From Candidatus Desantisbacteria bacterium CG1_02_49_89 (GTDB lineage: Bacteria > Desantisbacteria > UBA1551): 49,032 bases of DNA. Below are positions 14,247 to 21,969 of this stretch, piece after piece. The DNA lies in assembly GCA_001871075.1 (NCBI GenBank), contig MNUP01000047.1:1-49032 (forward strand), in the 5' to 3' direction. Under the pieces are notes generated by a model. That model made no database searches and had not been told where the DNA came from. It saw only the letters and a program-made list of their open reading frames with translations. Position 1 is the stretch's first letter. Each line of letters starts with the position of its first letter. Made by a program: the position numbers and the translations under genes.

Positions 14247-15516
14247 TCAACGTGTTTTGCTTGCATATTTGATCCTGTGCGTAACCGCAGCGTTCTGCAA
14301 CCGCGCATGCGGGGAAATCAGTTCGAAAGACATAGAATATAAAATTTACCTTTATCCCTCTGATGAAGCGCAGCCGCCGAAGCGTGCCCGCATACGCCGC
14401 GTTGCTTCAGTGCCGCCTTCGGTAAAAACGGTTGACTACAGTGTGTATACCGGTCTTGGCAGCATATATACCGATACTTTTCCGATAAGAGGGCTTCACG
14501 TGACTTCGTGGGCTGCCAGTTCTCTCGTTTCCTTTAACAGGCTTGTCGGGCTGGTAAACAGGACGGAGCTGAACGCGCTTGTTCTGGACCTTAAAGAGGC
14601 GGAGGGAAGGATCGCGTATGACAGCAGGCTTGATATCGCAAAAGAGCTGGGAACGCTGGAACCGATCGTTTCAAACATCGACGGGCTCATAACGATAATG
14701 AGGGAAAACAGGATCTTCCCCATAGCGCGCATCTGCGTTTTCAAGGATACGCTTCTTGCGCACAAAAAACCGGAGTGGGCGGTAAAAAACAAGAGCGGAA
14801 ACATCTGGCAGGATAAAAAGGGCCAGTCCTGGCTTGACCAGTATAACAGGGAAGTCTGGGATTATATAGTTATGATCGCGGAAGAAGCGGCTCAGAGGGG
14901 TTTCAGGGAGATACAGTTTGATTACGTAAGGTTCCCCAGCGACGGACAAATATCCGACTGCGTATTTCCCGCAAAGGCGAATTTCGGAGAAACCATTTCT
15001 CCGGCGCGCGTTATTCGAAGATTCCTGGAATATGCAAAAAATCGCCTGAAGCCTTACGGCGTGGCTATTTCGGCAGACCTGTTCGGGCTTACGTGTTCTT
15101 CCCTCGATGACCTGAACATAGGCCAGGTGATCGAAGAAGTGGCGAAGGAAGTGAATTACGTCTGCCCCATGACCTATCCCTCGCACTACTACCGCGGGAT
15201 GTATAACCTCCAGGTGCCGGAGGCAGAACCGTATAAGACTGTTTTCACAAGCATGAAAGACGTAAGGGTTAAACTCGGGGATACCAACCCGTGCGGCATA
15301 AGGCCGTGGCTGCAGGATTTTTCGCTGAAAGTGAAATACAACGCGTTCGAGGTGCAGGAGCAGATAAGGGCGGTCTATGAGAACGGCATAAGCGAATGGC
15401 TGCTCTGGAACCCAAGGTGCGTATACACGGAGGAGGTTTTAAGGCCTGAATCAGAGAGAAAGGCTGTAGCAAAGAAGATCCCGAATGGCGAAACGCTTAC
15501 GAAGCGGATCGAATAA
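14236..15516 (+). CDS. Putative exported glycoside hydrolase (DUF4015-like)
   Basis: TELNALVLDLK, IARICVFKD, GFREIQFDYVRFP, PMTYPSHY, RPWLQDF, WLLWN. Confidence 0.75.
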   Translation: MRSNQRVLLAYLILCVTAAFCNRACGEISSKDIEYKIYLYPSDEAQPPKRARIRRVASVPPSVKTVDYSVYTGLGSIYTDTFPIRGLHVTSWAASSLVSFNRLVGLVNRTELNALVLDLKEAEGRIAYDSRLDIAKELGTLEPIVSNIDGLITIMRENRIFPIARICVFKDTLLAHKKPEWAVKNKSGNIWQDKKGQSWLDQYNREVWDYIVMIAEEAAQRGFREIQFDYVRFPSDGQISDCVFPAKANFGETISPARVIRRFLEYAKNRLKPYGVAISADLFGLTCSSLDDLNIGQVIEEVAKEVNYVCPMTYPSHYYRGMYNLQVPEAEPYKTVFTSMKDVRVKLGDTNPCGIRPWLQDFSLKVKYNAFEVQEQIRAVYENGISEWLLWNPRCVYTEEVLRPESERKAVAKKIPNGETLTKRIE

Positions 15517-15773
15517 TGTTTTACACCTACGTGCTAAGAAGCCGGAAAAATCAGAAATTATATTACGGTTATACAAATAATCTGGAGAAAAGGATTGTTG
15601 AGCATAATTCGGGAAAGGATGATTTTACACGTCATAACGGACCCTGGGATCTTGTATATTTTGAGGAATTTACTTTAAAAACAGAAGCATTAAAACAAGA
15701 AAGATTCTTTAAGAGCGGCAAAGGAAGAGAATACGTAAGAGGAAAATTAAATAATTTTCAAATCGGGGAATAG
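15516..15773 (+). CDS. Small stand-alone GIY-YIG nuclease
   Basis: FYTYVLRS...LYYGYTNNLEKRIVEHN...WDLVYFEE...A..QERFFKSGKGR; visibly AT-rich relative to neighbours. Confidence 0.9.
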   Translation: MFYTYVLRSRKNQKLYYGYTNNLEKRIVEHNSGKDDFTRHNGPWDLVYFEEFTLKTEALKQERFFKSGKGREYVRGKLNNFQIGE

Positions 15774-15898
15774 CCCGCCCAGCAAGATTGGCGGGTAAAC
15801 TCCGCCTGGGTCAAAGACATCACTTATGTCTTTGACGGGTGGAAGAGCGGAGCGACATGCAATCATTCAGGCAGAGCACACAGGAAGCGCGCGCGGTT
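15757..15898 (+). pseudogene. Interrupted partial duplicate of the tRNA-Pro 5' half
   Basis: ttcaaatcggggaatagc (cf. 15933-15950) ... ccgcctgg [76-nt insert] agcgcgcgcggtt (identical to 15961-15973). Confidence 0.75.
15810..15885 (+). repeat. ~75-nt tRNA D-loop-inserted element, copy 1
   Basis: Perfect 11-bp hairpin gtcaaagacat/atgtctttgac, then a 49-nt segment 40/49 identical to 19499-19547. Confidence 0.8.
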
Positions 15899-15939
15899 AC
15901 AGTAATTAGGTATAAAAGTATTAGAGCGAAAATTCAAAT

Positions 15940-16013
15940 CGGGGTGTAGCGCAGTCTGGTAGCGCGCGCGGTTCGGGACCGTGAGGCCCCCGGTTCAAAT
16001 CCGGGCACCCCGA
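15940..16013 (+). tRNA. tRNA-Pro (CGG), CCA not encoded
   Basis: Acceptor cggggtg/caccccg+a, anticodon arm cgcgg-ttCGGga-ccgtg, T arm ggttcaaatcc. Confidence 0.95.
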
Positions 16014-16014
16014 T

Positions 16015-16122
16015 AGATTTTCGCAAAGCGAAAATCTGGAGCAATCGAACAATAGAAAATAGAGCAATAGATTAAGGAAAAAGTGAGATTGCGGTCTATT
16101 CTCTATTGTTCCATTTTCAGAA
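16015..16122 (+). repeat. ~105-nt structured tRNA trailer element, copy 1
   Basis: Hairpin agattttcgc/gcgaaaatct plus caatagaaaataga...tctattctctattg arms; homologous to 20095-20201. Confidence 0.8.
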
Positions 16123-16171
16123 GAGCAAGCTATAACAGTGTAAATCCGTGGCTGAAATATTGGAGGGATCA

Positions 16172-17461
16172 GTGGCAAAGATCGTAATGATCGGCGCGGG
16201 AAGCATGGGCTTTACAAGAAAATTGATAATAGATATCCTTAATTTCAAGGCGCTCAGGGATTCCACTGTAGCGCTGGTCGATATAGACGCCGGAAGGCTG
16301 GATATGATAACAAGGTGGGCGAAAAAGCTCATTGAGCAGGAAAAACTGCCCGCGAAGATCGAATCATCTACAGACAGAAGAGAAGTTCTGAAGGGCGCGG
16401 ACTTTATAGTCATAACCATCCGGGTGGGCGGGCTTGAGGCTTTTGAACTGGATGTGAGCATCCCGCGCAAATACGGCGTGAAGCAGGCGGTCGGGGACAC
16501 GCTTGGGCCCGGAGGGGTTTTTTACGCGATGCGCACGATACCCGTGCTTCTGGGCATATGCAAAGATGCGAACGAGCTCTGCCCGGACGCCTTGATCCTT
16601 AATTATTCAAACCCGATGGCGATGAATACCTGGGCGATGCTGAAATACGGCCACGAAAAAACAATAGGATTGTGCCACAGCGTGCAGGGCACAGCAGGGC
16701 AGCTTTCCAATTATATAGGTGTCCCGTTCGGAGAGGTCTCGTACTGGGTCGCGGGAATCAACCACATGTCATGGTTCCTTGAGTTCAGGCACAAGGATGT
16801 TGACGCCTACCCGAAGCTGTGGAAGGCGCTTGAGAACCCCGATATCTTCAAGCAGGACCCGGTCCGTTTCGAGATAATGAAACATTTTGACTACTTCGTG
16901 ACGGAGTCCAGCTTCCATATGGCTGAATACATGCCGTATTTCAACAAAAGAGAAGAGCTTATCAAGAAATTCAATACCCACGGCTGGATCTACCTTGAGC
17001 TCTGCAAGCAGGGCCTGGACCCGGCCGCGGAACAGATCAGGAAAGAAGTTGCCGGAGAGCAGAAAATAGATTTTTCTTCAAGCCCGGAATACTGCTCCTC
17101 CATTATAAACGCCGCGACCACGGGCATTTCTTACAGGATGAACGCAAGCGTTTTCAACAGGGGCATAATCTCTAACCTTCCGCAGGAGTCCTGTGTGGAG
17201 GTTCCCTGCTATGTTGACAAGACAGGGGTAAGGCCGGCATATGTGGGCGAGCTTCCCTTGCAGTGCGCTGCTCTTAACCGTTCCAGCATAAACGTCCAGG
17301 CGCTTGGCGTTGAAGCCGCTGTGGAAGGCAGCAGGCGCAAGGCGTTCCAGGCGATCTGCCTTGACCCGCTTACCGCAGCCGCGCTATCGCTGGAAGAGAT
17401 CCAGAAGATGACGGACGAAATGTTCGAGGCAGAGGCGCAGTACCTGCCGCAATTTAAATAA
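16172..17461 (+). CDS. melA: GH4 NAD-dependent alpha-galactosidase/glucosidase (MelA-like)
   Basis: KIVMIGAGS, DTLGPGG, LNYSNP, GLCHSV, AGINH, TESS.H.AEY; GTG after GGAGG. Confidence 0.85.
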   Translation: MAKIVMIGAGSMGFTRKLIIDILNFKALRDSTVALVDIDAGRLDMITRWAKKLIEQEKLPAKIESSTDRREVLKGADFIVITIRVGGLEAFELDVSIPRKYGVKQAVGDTLGPGGVFYAMRTIPVLLGICKDANELCPDALILNYSNPMAMNTWAMLKYGHEKTIGLCHSVQGTAGQLSNYIGVPFGEVSYWVAGINHMSWFLEFRHKDVDAYPKLWKALENPDIFKQDPVRFEIMKHFDYFVTESSFHMAEYMPYFNKREELIKKFNTHGWIYLELCKQGLDPAAEQIRKEVAGEQKIDFSSSPEYCSSIINAATTGISYRMNASVFNRGIISNLPQESCVEVPCYVDKTGVRPAYVGELPLQCAALNRSSINVQALGVEAAVEGSRRKAFQAICLDPLTAAALSLEEIQKMTDEMFEAEAQYLPQFK

Positions 17462-17568
17462 TGCAGTATCCAGTGGCCAGTATCCAGTGTCCAGCAAAAT
17501 CATATGGATTTAATCACCGTAATCGTATTCAGAAATCACTGTAATCAAATTTTAATGAGGAGGTTTGG

Positions 17569-18027
17569 ATGAAAGCGAAAGAGATAATGACGAAGAAGGT
17601 GGTAGCGGTTAAACCGGACACGACAGTGGAAAAGATAGCGAAGATACTGGCGGAAAAACACATAAGCGGCGTCCCGGTCGTGGACGACGACAACAGGGTG
17701 CTGGGGATCGTTACGGAGCACGACCTGCTGCTAAAGGACAAGATAAAGCAGGCAGTGCCCAGAATGGCGCTGTTCGGCCTGTTCGTTGTTCCGGACGAGC
17801 TGGTTAAAAAGGCGTACAAAGGCTACTGCAACGTGCACGCGTCGGAAATTATGAACAAGGGCGTCGTTACTTTTTCGGAAGACACCGATATCTCGGAAAT
17901 CGCCGAAGTTATGCATAAAAAAAAGATCAACAGGGTGCCTATAGTAAAAGAGGGAAAGCTTGCCGGTATTGTAAGCAGGGCGGATATCGTCAGGTCAATG
18001 GTGAAGGATTCCTGCAGCACGCAATAA
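17569..18027 (+). CDS. CBS-domain pair protein
   Basis: ISGVPVVD...GIVTEHD and INRVPIV...GIVSRAD. Confidence 0.9.
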   Translation: MKAKEIMTKKVVAVKPDTTVEKIAKILAEKHISGVPVVDDDNRVLGIVTEHDLLLKDKIKQAVPRMALFGLFVVPDELVKKAYKGYCNVHASEIMNKGVVTFSEDTDISEIAEVMHKKKINRVPIVKEGKLAGIVSRADIVRSMVKDSCSTQ

Positions 18028-18159
18028 TGCAAGATTTTAAAATCACCACAGAGACACGGAGACACAGAGTTTTTGCTTTAACTTAAATCTAATAATTCTC
18101 CGTGCCTCGGTGCCTCCGTGGTTATTATTGAAAACATTAATCTTAATTTGAGGTTTAAC

Positions 18160-18576
18160 ATGAAGTCATATAAAGAAGAGTTGTGGTTTAATACCAGGAA
18201 AAGAAGGGAATTCATAAATATAACTCCCCAGGTGGAAGAGGCTGTAAGGAAAAGCGGGATAAAAGAAGGCCTGTGCCTGGTCAACGCGATGCATATCACC
18301 GCAAGCGTTTTCATCAACGACGATGAAGGCGGGCTTCACCGGGATTTTGAGGAGTGGCTTGAGAAACTCGCTCCTTTCGGAAAAGAAAAGTATAAGCACA
18401 ACCTGACCGGCGAGGATAACGCGGACGCGCACATAAAAAGGTCTGTTATGGGGCGCGAGGTCGTGGCTGCGGTCACGTGCGGAAAGCTTGATTTCGGCCC
18501 GTGGGAGCAGATCTTCTACGGCGAGTTTGACGGAATGCGCCGCAAGCGCGTGCTGATAAAGATAATAGGCGAATGA
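18160..18576 (+). CDS. yjbQ: YjbQ/UPF0047 family protein
   Basis: [26 protein letters not shown]. Confidence 0.9.
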
Positions 18577-18683
18577 TAATTCGTGCGTCGTGCATCGTTA
18601 AAAATAGTTTACACAGTTTATAAAGTTTACAGAGTTTACAAAGTTTTATCTGTGGAAATCTGTGTCAATAGGAGGGTTTAGGT

Positions 18684-19208
18684 ATGGAAGATCTGAAGAA
18701 ATACATCAGGACCATTCCAAATTTCCCAAAAAAAGGCATAATGTTCAGGGATATTACAACGCTCGTAAAGAACGGGAAGGCGCTGAAAAAAGTAGTGGAC
18801 GCCATTGCGGCGAAATACAAAAGGCAGAAGATAGATGTTGTTGTGGGCGCTGAGTCCCGCGGTTTTATAGTCGGGGCGGGAGTTGCCTATAAACTTGGTG
18901 TAGGGCTTGCGCTTGTCAGAAAAAAGGGAAAGCTTCCCTTCAAGACGATCTCGGCCACGTATGAGCTTGAGTACGGCACAGACACCGTTGAAATGCATAA
19001 GGATGCCATAAAGAAAGGCCAGAGGGTCCTGATAGTAGACGACCTTCTTGCGACAGGCGGCACCGCGTCAGCCGCGGTTGACCTGGTCCGGAAACTCGGC
19101 GGCAGGATCGTGGGCATAGCGTTTATAATTGAGCTGGTGGACCTGAACGGCAGGAACAAGCTGAAAGGCTATGATATTTTTTCGCTTGTGGAGTATAAGG
19201 GGGAATAG
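18684..19208 (+). CDS. apt: Adenine phosphoribosyltransferase
   Basis: PNFPKKGIMFRDIT, ESRGF, RKKGKLP, LEYG, VDDLLATGGT. Confidence 0.97.
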   Translation: MEDLKKYIRTIPNFPKKGIMFRDITTLVKNGKALKKVVDAIAAKYKRQKIDVVVGAESRGFIVGAGVAYKLGVGLALVRKKGKLPFKTISATYELEYGTDTVEMHKDAIKKGQRVLIVDDLLATGGTASAAVDLVRKLGGRIVGIAFIIELVDLNGRNKLKGYDIFSLVEYKGE

Positions 19209-19454
19209 CAAAGGGGCAAGGGACCAGATGCAAGGGACAAGTGTTGGAAAAGGATTTTTCTTTTAAATTAATTAAGCAAGGGAAATAAAGGGTGGGATTC
19301 GCCCGCCCATATCGCTTTTATCGATTGGGCGAAGCGAAATCTCGCTTACTTTAACCTGTAATCGTCTTCTGGATTGACGGATACGTGTCCGCCCATATCG
19401 CTTTCAGCGATTGGGCGAGACCTCGCCCGTTCATCCAGAGGATGAAACGGGCGG

Positions 19455-19472
19455 GGAGAGATGGCCGAGCGG
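19455..19472 (+). repeat. Exact duplicate of the first 18 nt of tRNA-Ser
   Basis: ggagagatggccgagcgg is identical to 19660-19677. Confidence 0.9.
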
Positions 19473-19547
19473 GTCCCGATAACTGACGTTATCGGGACGG
19501 GTGGAAGAGTGGAACGACAGGCGTTCATTTATACAGAGCACCCAGGA
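19473..19547 (+). repeat. ~75-nt tRNA D-loop-inserted element, copy 2
   Basis: Perfect 11-bp hairpin gtcccgataac/gttatcgggac, then gggtggaagagtggaacgacag...cagagcacccagga. Confidence 0.8.
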
Positions 19548-19659
19548 ACCGCATCACTTATGTTAACCGATGATTAATTGTAATATTTTGGGTTGGGATC
19601 CGCCCGTACCTTTCAGGTCGGGCGAGATCTCGCCCACTTGCCTATAAGGCAAGATGGGC

Positions 19660-19747
19660 GGAGAGATGGCCGAGCGGCTTAAGGCGTGCGCTTGGAGAGC
19701 GTATAACCTGAAAGGGTTCGTGGGTTCGAATCCCACTCTCTCCGCCA
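19660..19747 (+). tRNA. tRNA-Ser (GGA)
   Basis: Acceptor ggagaga/tctctcc+g+cca, anticodon loop ttGGAga, long variable arm, T arm gtgggttcgaatcccac. Confidence 0.96.
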
Positions 19748-20094
19748 TACTACGCTCTACCTGATTATGCACAGGAAGTGTACCGAGCTTCGAATGGCAG
19801 GTTTTTAAAAAGGTAAAAAAATGTATTATGTATATATTTTAAAAGATCAAGACAACAAAACATATATTGGTTCAACCAATAACATAGAAAGAAGACTCAG
19901 GGAACACGGGGAAGGTTGTTGTTATTCGACAAGATATTTTAAGAAAGCAGTTCTAGAAGCATATATTGCTGTGAAGGATGAGTCAACAGCAAGAAAGTTG
20001 GAAAAGTATTTAAAGGTAGGTTCAGGCAAAGCATTTCTTAAAAAGAGAATTTTAACTGACGAAGCCTCGGCGTAGTCAGTCCCACTCTCTCCGC
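19746..20094 (+). mobile_element. 349-bp GIY-YIG cassette bounded by a 15-bp duplication of the tRNA-Ser 3' end
   Basis: tcccactctctccgc at 19731-19745 and again at 20080-20094; palindromes at both ends; no integrase. Confidence 0.65.
19821..20075 (+). CDS. Small stand-alone GIY-YIG nuclease
   Basis: YYVYILK...TYIGSTNNIERRLREH...ARKLEKYLKVGSGKAF; AT-rich. Confidence 0.9.
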   Translation: MYYVYILKDQDNKTYIGSTNNIERRLREHGEGCCYSTRYFKKAVLEAYIAVKDESTARKLEKYLKVGSGKAFLKKRILTDEASA

Positions 20095-20201
20095 AGTTTT
20101 TCGCTACAGCGAAAAACTAGAGCAATTGAGCAATGGAAAATAGAAAATGGATAAAGACAAAGCGATATTGCGGTCTATTTTCTATTGATCCATTTTCGGA
20201 A
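20095..20201 (+). repeat. ~105-nt structured tRNA trailer element, copy 2
   Basis: Hairpin agtttttcgc/gcgaaaaact; shares attgcggtctatt(c/t)tctattg(t/a)tccattttc with copy 1. Confidence 0.8.
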
Positions 20202-20244
20202 ATTTTGCTATAGTTTATAGTCTAATGATCGAATAGAGGCTTAA

Positions 20245-21969
20245 ATGGCTTACCTTACTTTAGCGAGAAAATACAGGCCGCAGGACTTCGACGGAGTTGT
20301 GGGCCAGTCGCACATTACACAGACCCTGAAGAACTCCCTTGAATCCGGCAGGATTTCGCACGCTTACCTTTTTAGCGGGCCCAGGGGCATCGGAAAAACT
20401 TCAACGGCAAGGATCCTGGCAAAATGCCTGAACTGCGAAAAGGGCCCCACGGTCAATCCCTGCGGTAAATGCTCTATGTGCCTGGAGATAACCGAGGGTT
20501 CGTCCATGGATATCGTTGAGATAGACGCGGCATCGCACAGGGGCATAGATGAGGCAAAAGATCTGATTGAAAAGGTAAGATTTGTATCAGGGGCCGCGCG
20601 GTATAAAATGTATATCATTGACGAAGTGCATATGTTAACCCCCCAAAGCTTTAACGCTCTCTTGAAAACCATAGAGGAACCTCCCCCAAATGTAATATTT
20701 GTTCTTGCCACCACAGCTCCGCATGATATCCCCCAGACGATCCTTTCGCGCTGCCAGTGGTTTGTTTTCAGGCGCATCTCGGTGCAGGATATGATAAAGC
20801 ACCTGGCAAGGATAAGCAGCCTGGAGAAGATCAAGATCAGCGAGAGCTCGCTTTTCGCGATAGCAAGGCATTCGGAAGGTTCCCTGAGGGACGCTGAGGT
20901 GAGCCTTGAGCAGGTGATCTCATTCAGCGGCACCGACGTGCAGGATGAAGACGTAAGTGCGCTCCTGGGCGTGATAAAGCTTGATTTCTACAGGAACTAT
21001 TTCAAAGGCATAATTACCGGGGATGTGCAGTCCGCGGTCAGCCTGACAGGCGAGATCATGGACAGCGGTTATGAGATAGACGATTTTATCCAGGGCTTGC
21101 AGGAATACGCGCGCAACCTTATAGTGCTCAAGGACGGCCAGGCCCGGGTTTCAGACGCGAATCTTTCCCTGGTTGACCTTCCGGTTGAGGACGTAAAAAA
21201 GCTGAAGGAAGAAACCGCGTGTTTCAGCGAGGAAGAACTTGTGTGGATGGTGGACGCGATCTCGCAGGCGCAGAAAGACCTGCACAATTTCGGGATGGGC
21301 GGCCAGGAAAGGCTGATACTTGAACTGATGGCGATAAGGCTGGTAAAGCACGGCATAAAAAAGCAGGCCGGTGCCGCATCGAAAAACCCGGAAGCCCGGC
21401 AGGTTGCTGTCCAGCCGACAAAGGATCATGCTCCTGTTCCTCCTCCCCCTACTGTTCCGCATCCTGCTCCGCAGGAGCAGGACAAACCGAAGGTTGTTCC
21501 TGCTGTTGCGCCAAAGGTTGGGCAGGCGCAGCCCGCTTCGCGCAGCGATAACGAAGATCCCCGTCCTGCACCGGCCCCAAAGGAAAAAATTGCGCCCGGG
21601 CATAAAGAAATAAGCCTTGAAGCAGTGCTGGAAGGATGGGGAAGTTTTGTGCAGATCATTAAGGAAAAAAAGCCGGGTATGGCTCAATTTCTGGAAGAGG
21701 CAAGGCCGAAGGAGTTGAAAGAAGGCACACTCACGGTATCTTTCAATAAAGAACTTGAGTTCCAGAGAAAAAGGGCAGAGGAAAAAGAGGATAAAAGTTT
21801 TATTGAGTCAACGCTTAAAGAAGTATACAGCGTGCCTTTGAAGATCAAGTACCTGCCCGGCGATCACGCGCAGGAAGAAAAGATCAAGAAGGCCGAGGAT
21901 GAGCCGCTCTTGAAAAAGACGCTTGAGATTTTCAAGGCAAAAATAGTGGACAGAAAGAAAATCCAGTGA
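20245..21969 (+). CDS. dnaX: DNA polymerase III subunit gamma/tau
   Basis: LARKYRPQ, GPRGIGKT, EIDAAS, IIDEVHML, SRC motif; Pro-rich linker. Confidence 0.96.
   Translation: MAYLTLARKYRPQDFDGVVGQSHITQTLKNSLESGRISHAYLFSGPRGIGKTSTARILAKCLNCEKGPTVNPCGKCSMCLEITEGSSMDIVEIDAASHRGIDEAKDLIEKVRFVSGAARYKMYIIDEVHMLTPQSFNALLKTIEEPPPNVIFVLATTAPHDIPQTILSRCQWFVFRRISVQDMIKHLARISSLEKIKISESSLFAIARHSEGSLRDAEVSLEQVISFSGTDVQDEDVSALLGVIKLDFYRNYFKGIITGDVQSAVSLTGEIMDSGYEIDDFIQGLQEYARNLIVLKDGQARVSDANLSLVDLPVEDVKKLKEETACFSEEELVWMVDAISQAQKDLHNFGMGGQERLILELMAIRLVKHGIKKQAGAASKNPEARQVAVQPTKDHAPVPPPPTVPHPAPQEQDKPKVVPAVAPKVGQAQPASRSDNEDPRPAPAPKEKIAPGHKEISLEAVLEGWGSFVQIIKEKKPGMAQFLEEARPKELKEGTLTVSFNKELEFQRKRAEEKEDKSFIESTLKEVYSVPLKIKYLPGDHAQEEKIKKAEDEPLLKKTLEIFKAKIVDRKKIQ

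Follow-up and report, generated by a model that had tools for sequence, protein, structure and literature searches.

Two tRNA loci and their small GIY-YIG genes

We analyzed a 49,032-nt stretch of Candidatus Desantisbacteria bacterium CG1_02_49_89 (contig MNUP01000047.1 of assembly GCA_001871075.1; hereafter the window, which is contig C81 of the 2.48-Mb, 150-contig assembly G000 with its 44 tRNAs). In it, two tRNA genes, tRNA-Pro(CGG) and tRNA-Ser(GGA), are each accompanied by a small GIY-YIG nuclease gene, by partial copies of the tRNA itself and by short hairpin-bearing elements (Table 1). We called tRNAs with ARAGORN and Rfam, domains with Pfam and repeats with a repeat finder. The original prediction, made from the letters alone, had described three parts at each locus: a homologous element of about 75 nt (here E) that interrupts an upstream partial tRNA copy, an AT-rich GIY-YIG gene of about 85 codons, and a homologous trailer of about 105 nt. 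This three-part observation is real. The genes between the two loci are ordinary, as had been claimed (GH4, CBS, UPF0047/YjbQ and phosphoribosyltransferase by Pfam), and none of the eight open reading frames (ORFs) scanned around both loci carries an integrase or transposase domain.

Table 1. Features of the two loci (positions in the window) and examples of tRNA self-copies on other contigs of the assembly
Feature	Position	Strand	Basis or remark
GIY-YIG mini-nuclease gene at tRNA-Pro, 85 aa	15516–15773	+	Pfam
Pseudo-tRNA-Pro 5′ fragment, hairpin-interrupted	15757–15809	+	Repeat comparison
E copy 1: P1 hairpin 15810–15836, then GGGTGG...CACACAGGAA	15808–15888	+	Placed after D-loop GG of pseudo-tRNA
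Pseudo-tRNA-Pro continuation	15886–15898	+	Exact 13-nt copy of tRNA positions 23–35
Intact tRNA-Pro(CGG)	15939–16014	+	ARAGORN, Rfam
Trailer of tRNA-Pro: TTTTCGC..GCGAAAA hairpin, then long AT-rich heptamer-repeat hairpin	16015–16122	+	
Leader full of REP-like hairpins, e.g. 19303–19332 and 19389–19418	19285–19454	+	
Pseudo-tRNA-Ser 5′ fragment	19455–19472	+	18/18 copy of tRNA positions 1–18
E copy 2; P1 hairpin 19473–19498 of GTCCCGAT..ATCGGGAC type	19471–19550	+	
Intact tRNA-Ser(GGA), CCA encoded	19660–19747	+	ARAGORN, Rfam
332-nt insert separating tRNA-Ser from displaced 3′ end	19748–20079	+	Holds GIY-YIG gene
GIY-YIG gene at tRNA-Ser, 84 aa	19821–20075	+	Pfam
Displaced original 3′ end of tRNA-Ser	20080–20094	+	Exact 15-nt copy of positions 72–86, begins at T-loop end
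Trailer of tRNA-Ser, pushed downstream by GIY-YIG insert	20095–20201	+	
Self-copy examples	C41:6387–6462, C109:348–436, C115:2982–3057, C122:3637–3720, C150:5107–5189, C47:54466–54547		

At the Pro locus, the start of the GIY-YIG gene overlaps the stop of an upstream DUF4015 gene, and its own stop codon TAG (15771–15773) forms positions 8–10 of the pseudo-tRNA-Pro. The first part of this pseudo-copy (15757–15774) matches the 7-nt upstream flank plus positions 1–11 of tRNA-Pro at 16 of 18 letters. It is followed by a 22-nt hairpin resembling repetitive extragenic palindromic (REP) sequences (15774–15795, of the CCGCC..GGCGG class), by the D-loop GCCTGG and then by E, after which the copy resumes and ends (15898) just before or in the anticodon. 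An orthologous comparison fails here because the GH4 homologue of G001, a genome of the same order and the sole other genome of the phylum compared, is just 45% identical and has no tRNA nearby.

At the Ser locus the order is tRNA, GIY-YIG gene, 3′ copy and trailer. The stop codon of the gene (20073–20075) lies 4 nt ahead of the copied tRNA 3′ end, and the final 24 nt of the insert (20056–20079) are a copy of a dispersed repeat, CTGACGAAGCCTYGGCGTAGTCAG. We also considered TACTACGCT...GCGTAGTCAG as terminal inverted repeats of the Ser cassette, with a gene-less derivative at tRNA-Leu(CAA) on contig C150; what weakens this reading is that the two motifs are members of a dispersed repeat family with copies at many places other than tRNAs. 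CCA is present in the intact tRNA-Ser and absent from the displaced 3′ copy, and as a sign of foreign origin this difference is uninformative because 9/44 tRNAs encode CCA and the displaced copy may have lost one C.

The orthologous Ser(GGA) site is empty in G001. There the synteny apt, tRNA-Ser(GGA), dnaX is kept, the tRNA starts 4 nt past the apt stop, and the locus comparison finds no leader, pseudo-copy or E; the tRNA is followed by two unrelated small ORFs, with no GIY-YIG gene or trailer. This site serves as an empty site lacking both E and the GIY-YIG gene. The two small ORFs (locus L031, 780–1440, between tRNA-Ser(GGA) and dnaX) are absent from the window. The end of the window's Ser trailer carries a promoter-like site (20185–20214; TTGATC and TATAGT at an 18-nt spacing, with TG upstream of TATAGT) that lies 31 nt ahead of dnaX, and the trailer may therefore supply a dnaX promoter.

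Both small proteins match the Pfam GIY-YIG family (PF01541; Pro, E = 1.7e-17, 63.9 bits; Ser, E = 5.4e-14, 52.7 bits; cut-off 22.6) and are 32% identical to each other. The Ser protein has weak T5orf172/MUG113 overlaps besides PF01541 and no other extra domain in Pfam. NCBIfam gave no specific family for these proteins, and among solved chains the UPF0213 proteins 1zg2 and 1ywl come nearest. Including these two, tblastn gathered seven small GIY-YIG paralogues in G000, all single-domain and 80–95 aa long. Invariant Tyr (GIY), Tyr-x-Gly (YIG), Arg, His and Glu columns are shared by 7/7 paralogues. We take all of these but His to be catalytic, in line with the GIY-YIG fold and with the Ssn mutants Y6A, Y17A and E64A (PMC11893778). 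The Pro and Ser genes have a GC content of 33–34% against 50–52% in their neighbors, and all seven genes fall at 30–44% against about 50%. Pfam, base composition and stop positions thus bear out the predicted AT-rich genes of about 85 codons that end in or beside a tRNA duplicate.

GIY-YIG genes beside tRNA genes in this and other genomes

Small GIY-YIG genes of this genome lie at tRNA genes far more often than chance would place them. Five of the seven are 0–205 nt from a tRNA (Pro-CGG, Ser-GGA, Cys, Met and Ser-UGA; p ~ 5e-9, with 1.2% of positions in G000 qualifying as near a tRNA), and all five are co-oriented with their tRNA. The Cys and Met loci share the order pseudo-tRNA, GIY-YIG gene, intact tRNA. 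Their pseudo-tRNAs comprise the 5′ part up to the T-arm, with the anticodon arm swapped for a short hairpin, and the one at Met also includes 28 nt of upstream flank. The GIY-YIG ORF at Met extends as far as the anticodon loop of the tRNA, where it stops, in parallel with the stop of the Pro ORF inside its pseudo-copy. The breakpoints of the three mappable GIY-YIG inserts in G000 all lie in or beside the T-loop.

The same association recurs in other genomes. A PF01541 survey of 20 relatives yielded 19 small GIY-YIG loci outside G000, five of them with a tRNA within 170 nt and one more with a tRNA at about 550 nt, and none of nine UvrC-type control loci has a tRNA within 1.5 kb. We also searched 200 relatives with the Pro GIY-YIG protein, which has matches at 1e-8 in 49/201 genomes, and examined the best 29 loci outside G000. 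Among these best 29, a tRNA or tmRNA lies within 250 nt at 21 (co-oriented in 20/21) and at 391 and 779 nt at two more; 14 show a bracketed layout, with the gene between a tRNA and that tRNA's own partial copy, nearly always at 100% identity. These counts ignore kinship among the genomes, which are labeled only as of the same domain, and the layout therefore crosses large phylogenetic distances. In nine loci read in detail, palindromes interrupt the pseudo-copies at the D-loop or a hairpin replaces the anticodon arm, and one locus (L071) has the order GIY-YIG gene, hairpin-bearing pseudo-copy, tRNA-Pro(CGG), as in the window. The occurrence at 5/7 loci here and 21/29 elsewhere, with 14/29 bracketed, supports the prediction of a compact, integrase-free, tRNA-associated GIY-YIG element.

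Several features of the surveyed loci stand apart. Palindromes of the form CCGAT..ATCGG lie near the GIY-YIG gene at about 6/29 loci (anywhere in the locus at 10/29) and at 0/9 UvrC loci, and are suggestive only, because other loci use different hairpins. Beside the GIY-YIG genes of L078 and L085, ARAGORN calls chimeric tRNAs: a “tRNA-Tyr” whose 3′ part is identical to the neighboring tRNA-Ala and a “tRNA-Stop(tta)” made of tRNA-Asp parts. GIY-YIG cassettes can thus be a source of false suppressor or otherwise odd tRNA calls. At L093 a tmRNA gene takes the place of the tRNA, 92 nt upstream of the GIY-YIG homologue, and tmRNA possesses a T-arm resembling that of tRNA.

Trailers, tRNA self-copies and element E

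The trailer is an ordinary 3′ flank of tRNAs in this organism and lies outside the cassette. The two trailers of the window are 78–86% identical to each other, so the predicted homology stands, but they are generic. A trailer profile search of G000 returned about 26 same-strand copies, nearly all starting 0–25 nt past a tRNA 3′ end, and the signature GGTCYATT occurs within 170 nt downstream of 31/44 tRNAs, with or without a GIY-YIG gene. In two cases (Ser-GGA and Ser-GCT) the trailer is displaced by at least 300 nt, and a copy of the tRNA 3′ end stands directly ahead of each. The ancestral order was therefore tRNA then trailer, with a later insertion at the T-loop. The trailer is not part of a GIY-YIG system. 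BLAST with the trailer found no match in the G001 genome, which is 87% complete. Given a generic trailer, and an E that recurs without GIY-YIG genes (below), the “same three-part architecture” once claimed for a single system is not supported.

Partial self-copies are frequent among the tRNAs of this genome. When all tRNAs of G000 are checked for flanking partial duplicates, 16/44 have a same-strand copy within 700 nt, and seven of these copies are 3′ copies that all start in or just after the T-loop. In the 3′ cases, noncoding inserts of 100–270 nt separate tRNA and copy. One such insert, …CCCCGGCTCCGGGTRAATC…ACAAAGGACC, is conserved between contigs C109 (~560–708) and C47 (~54235–54330, minus strand), where it abuts a 3′ copy beginning at the T-loop start, at tRNA-Ser(GCT) and tRNA-Leu(UAG).

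Integration classically targets tRNA genes, where crossover takes place in the anticodon and T-loops, and tyrosine-integrase islands and prophages resemble the cassettes in leaving partial tRNA duplicates beside an intact tRNA. The duplicates could accordingly be decayed attachment-site scars of integrase-borne islands or cis-mobilizable elements, the GIY-YIG genes being leftover cargo, and the seven 3′ copies, with their starts in or just past the T-loop, fit such an origin. We regard it as very improbable. The cassettes have no integrase, the inserts measure merely 100–330 nt, many duplicates are of the 5′ rather than the 3′ part, and the same small gene occupies the same position at 21/29 loci elsewhere. 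The whole of G000 holds just two full-length PF00589 recombinases (~330 aa, Xer-like in size), both on other contigs, plus one fragment, and the eight ORFs around the two loci include no tyrosine recombinase, serine recombinases being outside this search.

Element E is confined to dead tRNA copies. Its two copies in the window, at 15810–15885 and 19473–19547 by repeat comparison, are 82% identical over 57 nt, and the repeat finder confirms the predicted upstream 5′ self-copies cut after the D-loop GG by a homologous element of about 75 nt. nhmmer and a covariance model agree on eight copies at seven loci of G000. At five loci an intact tRNA stands downstream of E (Pro-CGG, Ser-GGA, Phe, Tyr and Pro-UGG, the last with two tandem copies), and the other two are orphans (on contigs C35 and C113). 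Each of the eight copies follows an exact copy of its own tRNA's 5′ end that reaches the D-loop GG; beyond E, the tRNA copy picks up again near position 22 in type I tRNAs and ends in the anticodon loop. No E was found outside a pseudo-tRNA 5′ fragment (8/8 copies inside one). The E copies differ by about 25% among themselves while their pseudo-copy segments are 100% identical to the respective tRNA, a combination that suggests recent events or gene conversion.

One helix of E is firm. In hairpin P1, 8/11 pairs change on both sides, which is covariation. A modeled second helix, GGGTG/CACCC, has three covarying pairs and also three unpaired cells, and RNAalifold's own P2 differs from it, so it is weakly supported. 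Neither E nor the trailer matches a known Rfam family at the gathering score: in an Rfam scan just the two tRNAs pass and all else lies far below.

E is not restricted to G000. G001 holds one orphan copy (on its contig C91), and an exact-pattern scan found one further genome record and 10 metagenome contigs, most of the same organism. At locus L056, E lies upstream of tRNA-Pro(GGG), a tRNA without E in G000. Locus L059 is a homologue of the orphan locus on C35 with an intact tRNA-Ser(CGA), the G000 copy being truncated after the anticodon loop; at all orphan E loci (C35, C113 and C91 of G001) the tRNA is decayed or missing. Between C35:1061–1141 and L059 (84% identity), the first hairpin of E is wholly exchanged (GTCGAAGAC… vs GTCCCGATAAC…) and the rest of E is kept. 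E is most likely a lineage-specific, nonautonomous hairpin module of the pseudo-copies that persists or spreads between D-arms without a nuclease of its own.

One possibility is that Y1 transposases of the genome (IS200/IS605/RAYT-type) move E and the remaining hairpin inserts as nonautonomous REP/REPIN- or PATE-like elements, that these gather in dead tRNA copies because insertion there is harmless, and that the proximity of GIY-YIG genes is incidental. REP/REPIN elements with RAYT, IS200/IS605-derived elements and E are all short, hairpin-bearing, noncoding, multicopy repeats. G000 has 10 matches to the Y1 domain (PF01797), one of which (C83:3536–3898) is flanked on both sides by a CCCCGCGG (CCCCGCGGCTTGCCGCGGGG) hairpin in the classic REP-RAYT-REP layout, and more than 1000 perfect hairpins (stem of at least 8 bp) of many families. 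The covariation of P1 is as expected of a hairpin read as single-stranded DNA, and the exchange of P1 between the orthologous loci C35 and L059 also fits. We nevertheless think this account unlikely. Around the 10 Y1 genes, no flanking hairpin is of the E or GTCCCGAT type; the eight E copies here and those of G001, L056 and L059 all follow a pseudo-tRNA D-loop GG and occur nowhere else; and hairpins inserted at the D-loop are also found in GIY-cassette pseudo-copies of unrelated genomes.

Other repeats and signals of the region are minor. A promoter/terminator scan of 15400–20400 found no excess over shuffles. The spacers at 17464–17491, 18041–18126 and 18600–18660 contain short tandem or inverted 7–8-nt repeats (e.g., CAGTATCCAGTGGC twice and a GTTTACA series), and the hairpin at 18041–18126 yields a spurious mir-999 match.

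A homing-endonuclease-like reading and its precedents

Two described GIY-YIG nucleases offer precedents. SegB of phages T4 and T6 is a protein of about 220 aa with a separate DNA-binding region. It is a free-standing homing endonuclease, encoded within the phage tRNA gene cluster; its 27-bp recognition site has the conserved TpsiC stem-loop of tRNA genes at its core, and it homes together with neighboring tRNA genes (PMC2330249). A 2026 study (PMC13096335) places the SegB cut within tRNA genes, at RAWTSGAAC (the T-loop complement), credits the enzyme with driving a tandem amplification of tRNA and segB that depends on recombination and benefits the phage, and finds SegB homologues near tRNAs of many isotypes. 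Ssn (CDD family cd10448) is a 94-aa, single-domain GIY-YIG nuclease that is site-specific on hairpin single-stranded DNA, and its genes are flanked by their own hairpin repeats (NTS/SRM) in a layout that the authors note as insertion-sequence-like (Chenal et al. 2025, PMC11893778).

The window cassettes combine traits of both, namely a catalytic-domain-only nuclease, hairpins and tRNA genes. With SegB they share the GIY-YIG catalytic chemistry and a gene set among or against tRNA genes, the latter at 5/7 loci here and 21/29 elsewhere. SegB is a phage protein, whereas the proteins here are catalytic domains of 80–92 aa on bacterial chromosomes, and hairpin-interrupted pseudo-tRNA brackets like those of the window cassettes are not described for SegB. 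The two ORFs of 84–85 aa, which carry the PF01541 domain, show neither SegB-type relatedness nor an extra DNA-binding region. With the Pro GIY-YIG protein as tblastn query, 50,697 phage records yielded no T4-type phage at E 1e-3; the 15 weak matches (Rhizobium phages, Listeria phages and one other phage) reach a best E of 9e-8. With Ssn the proteins share a single GIY-YIG domain of about 90 aa and a gene flanked by short hairpin repeats. The genes here are tRNA-nested, whereas tRNA has no mention in the Ssn paper (PMC11893778). The published SRM pattern is not enriched in G000 (10 matches vs 20 in a reversed-sequence control); the match nearest to a GIY-YIG gene is 1518 nt away, with none within 1.5 kb, and hairpin families other than SRM do flank the genes. 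We therefore liken the action of these proteins to that of SegB and Ssn and place them in neither group, because SRM is not enriched and the phage homologues are few and weak.

Our results make it somewhat probable that a minimal selfish cassette, similar to a homing endonuclease, resides in tRNA genes and that both GIY-YIG genes of the window are copies of it. This reading rests on the tight and co-oriented association of the genes with tRNAs, the bracketing, the hairpin-interrupted copies, the foreign base composition and the empty site. The best reading is that free-standing GIY-YIG homing elements at tRNA genes are a known kind of element and that the window cassettes are a new form of it. 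A literature search, with subscription journals and supplements outside its reach, brought up no account of bacterial tRNA genes that have small GIY-YIG genes nested at them.

Such a cassette could propagate as follows. A nuclease of about 80–90 aa, consisting of the catalytic domain alone, would break tRNA DNA in one of the cloverleaf loops, and recombinational repair would copy the cassette into the broken tRNA gene. The tRNA sequence on both sides of the cassette, a partial pseudo-copy and a whole tRNA, would act as its own homology arms, and recombination into any cognate tRNA gene would leave a working tRNA. No integrase would be needed because the cassette supplies the homology arms and leaves a functional tRNA. 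Gene conversion may maintain the identity of the pseudo-copies to the tRNA. Breakpoints in the D-, anticodon and T-loops fit recognition of structure and also fit recognition of T-loop sequence as by SegB.

Several observations weigh against a selfish tRNA cassette. Two of the seven GIY-YIG genes of G000 lack a nearby tRNA, as do both small GIY-YIG loci examined in G001 (L004 and L024) and 6 of the best 29 homologous loci. The predicted pairing of E with the nuclease holds at two of seven E loci (GIY-YIG gene within 500 nt), leaving five without one, and among the 44 tRNAs the five with E and the five with a GIY-YIG gene overlap in two, which is not significant (p = 0.09). Breakpoints in other genomes extend beyond the T-loop, falling at positions 18–55 in 5′ copies and 44–67 in 3′ copies. 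Each cassette also stands beside an intact tRNA that retains the presumed target and would have to escape self-cleavage. REP-like hairpins beside GIY-YIG genes are weak evidence because they are so common in G000 (221 of the CCGCC..GGCGG class), and the 10 Y1-transposase matches are potential movers of hairpin elements. We saw no polymorphism between filled and empty alleles: 24 public groundwater or aquifer runs were located, all of DNA, and the contigs (not reads) of four of them (X24, X22, X20 and X13), compared over 15300–20400, match the filled form exactly. No contig of these runs joins across 19748–20079 or the Pro cassette, although rare empty alleles could escape contigs. A few contig joints at the REP hairpin (15795), with just 20–21 letters on one side, were taken as repeat artifacts.

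The system might instead serve its host. The pseudo-tRNA/E leader and the trailer would then be transcribed as a processing or regulatory RNA, and the nuclease would be domesticated, for example to amplify or repair tRNA loci, in the way that SegB helps phage T6 when a defense targets tRNA. The constant co-orientation of GIY-YIG genes and E with their tRNA, pseudo-copies that stay identical to the tRNA beside diverged E copies, the near-universal trailer and the benefit that SegB-driven tRNA amplification brings its phage (PMC13096335) all agree with such a role. It is decidedly improbable given the patchy distribution (49/201 genomes), the empty orthologous site in G001, the orphan E loci with decayed or missing tRNAs, and the lack of any Rfam family match. 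The tRNA-processing role that the original prediction had allowed for found no support.

A more specific version of the selfish cassette, which we put forward as a tentative and on balance doubtful proposal, joins the two precedents. The mini GIY-YIG proteins would be Ssn-like, hairpin-guided nucleases that act on tRNA genes folded as single-stranded cloverleaves, and the hairpins of the pseudo-copies (E and other palindromes) would be the cognate sites that they bind. Cleavage in the D-, anticodon or T-loop would set off recombination by which nuclease, hairpin and a fresh tRNA are copied into any cognate tRNA gene, with tRNA sequence as universal homology arms, and the cassettes would form a new class of integrase-free mobile element across bacterial phyla.

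Genome annotations list thousands of small GIY-YIG or UPF0213-like genes as hypothetical or repair proteins. Should many of these “GIY-YIG nuclease family” or “UPF0213-like” genes be tRNA-nested selfish cassettes, their patchy distribution would be explained, as would odd pseudo-tRNA and chimeric tRNA annotations. Compact nucleases specific for tRNA DNA or hairpins would be candidate tools. The SegB principle, with the tRNA T-loop as a universal homing site, would extend from phages to bacterial chromosomes and to a far smaller protein, and a mobile element could dispense with an integrase by using duplicated target sequence as its homology arms.

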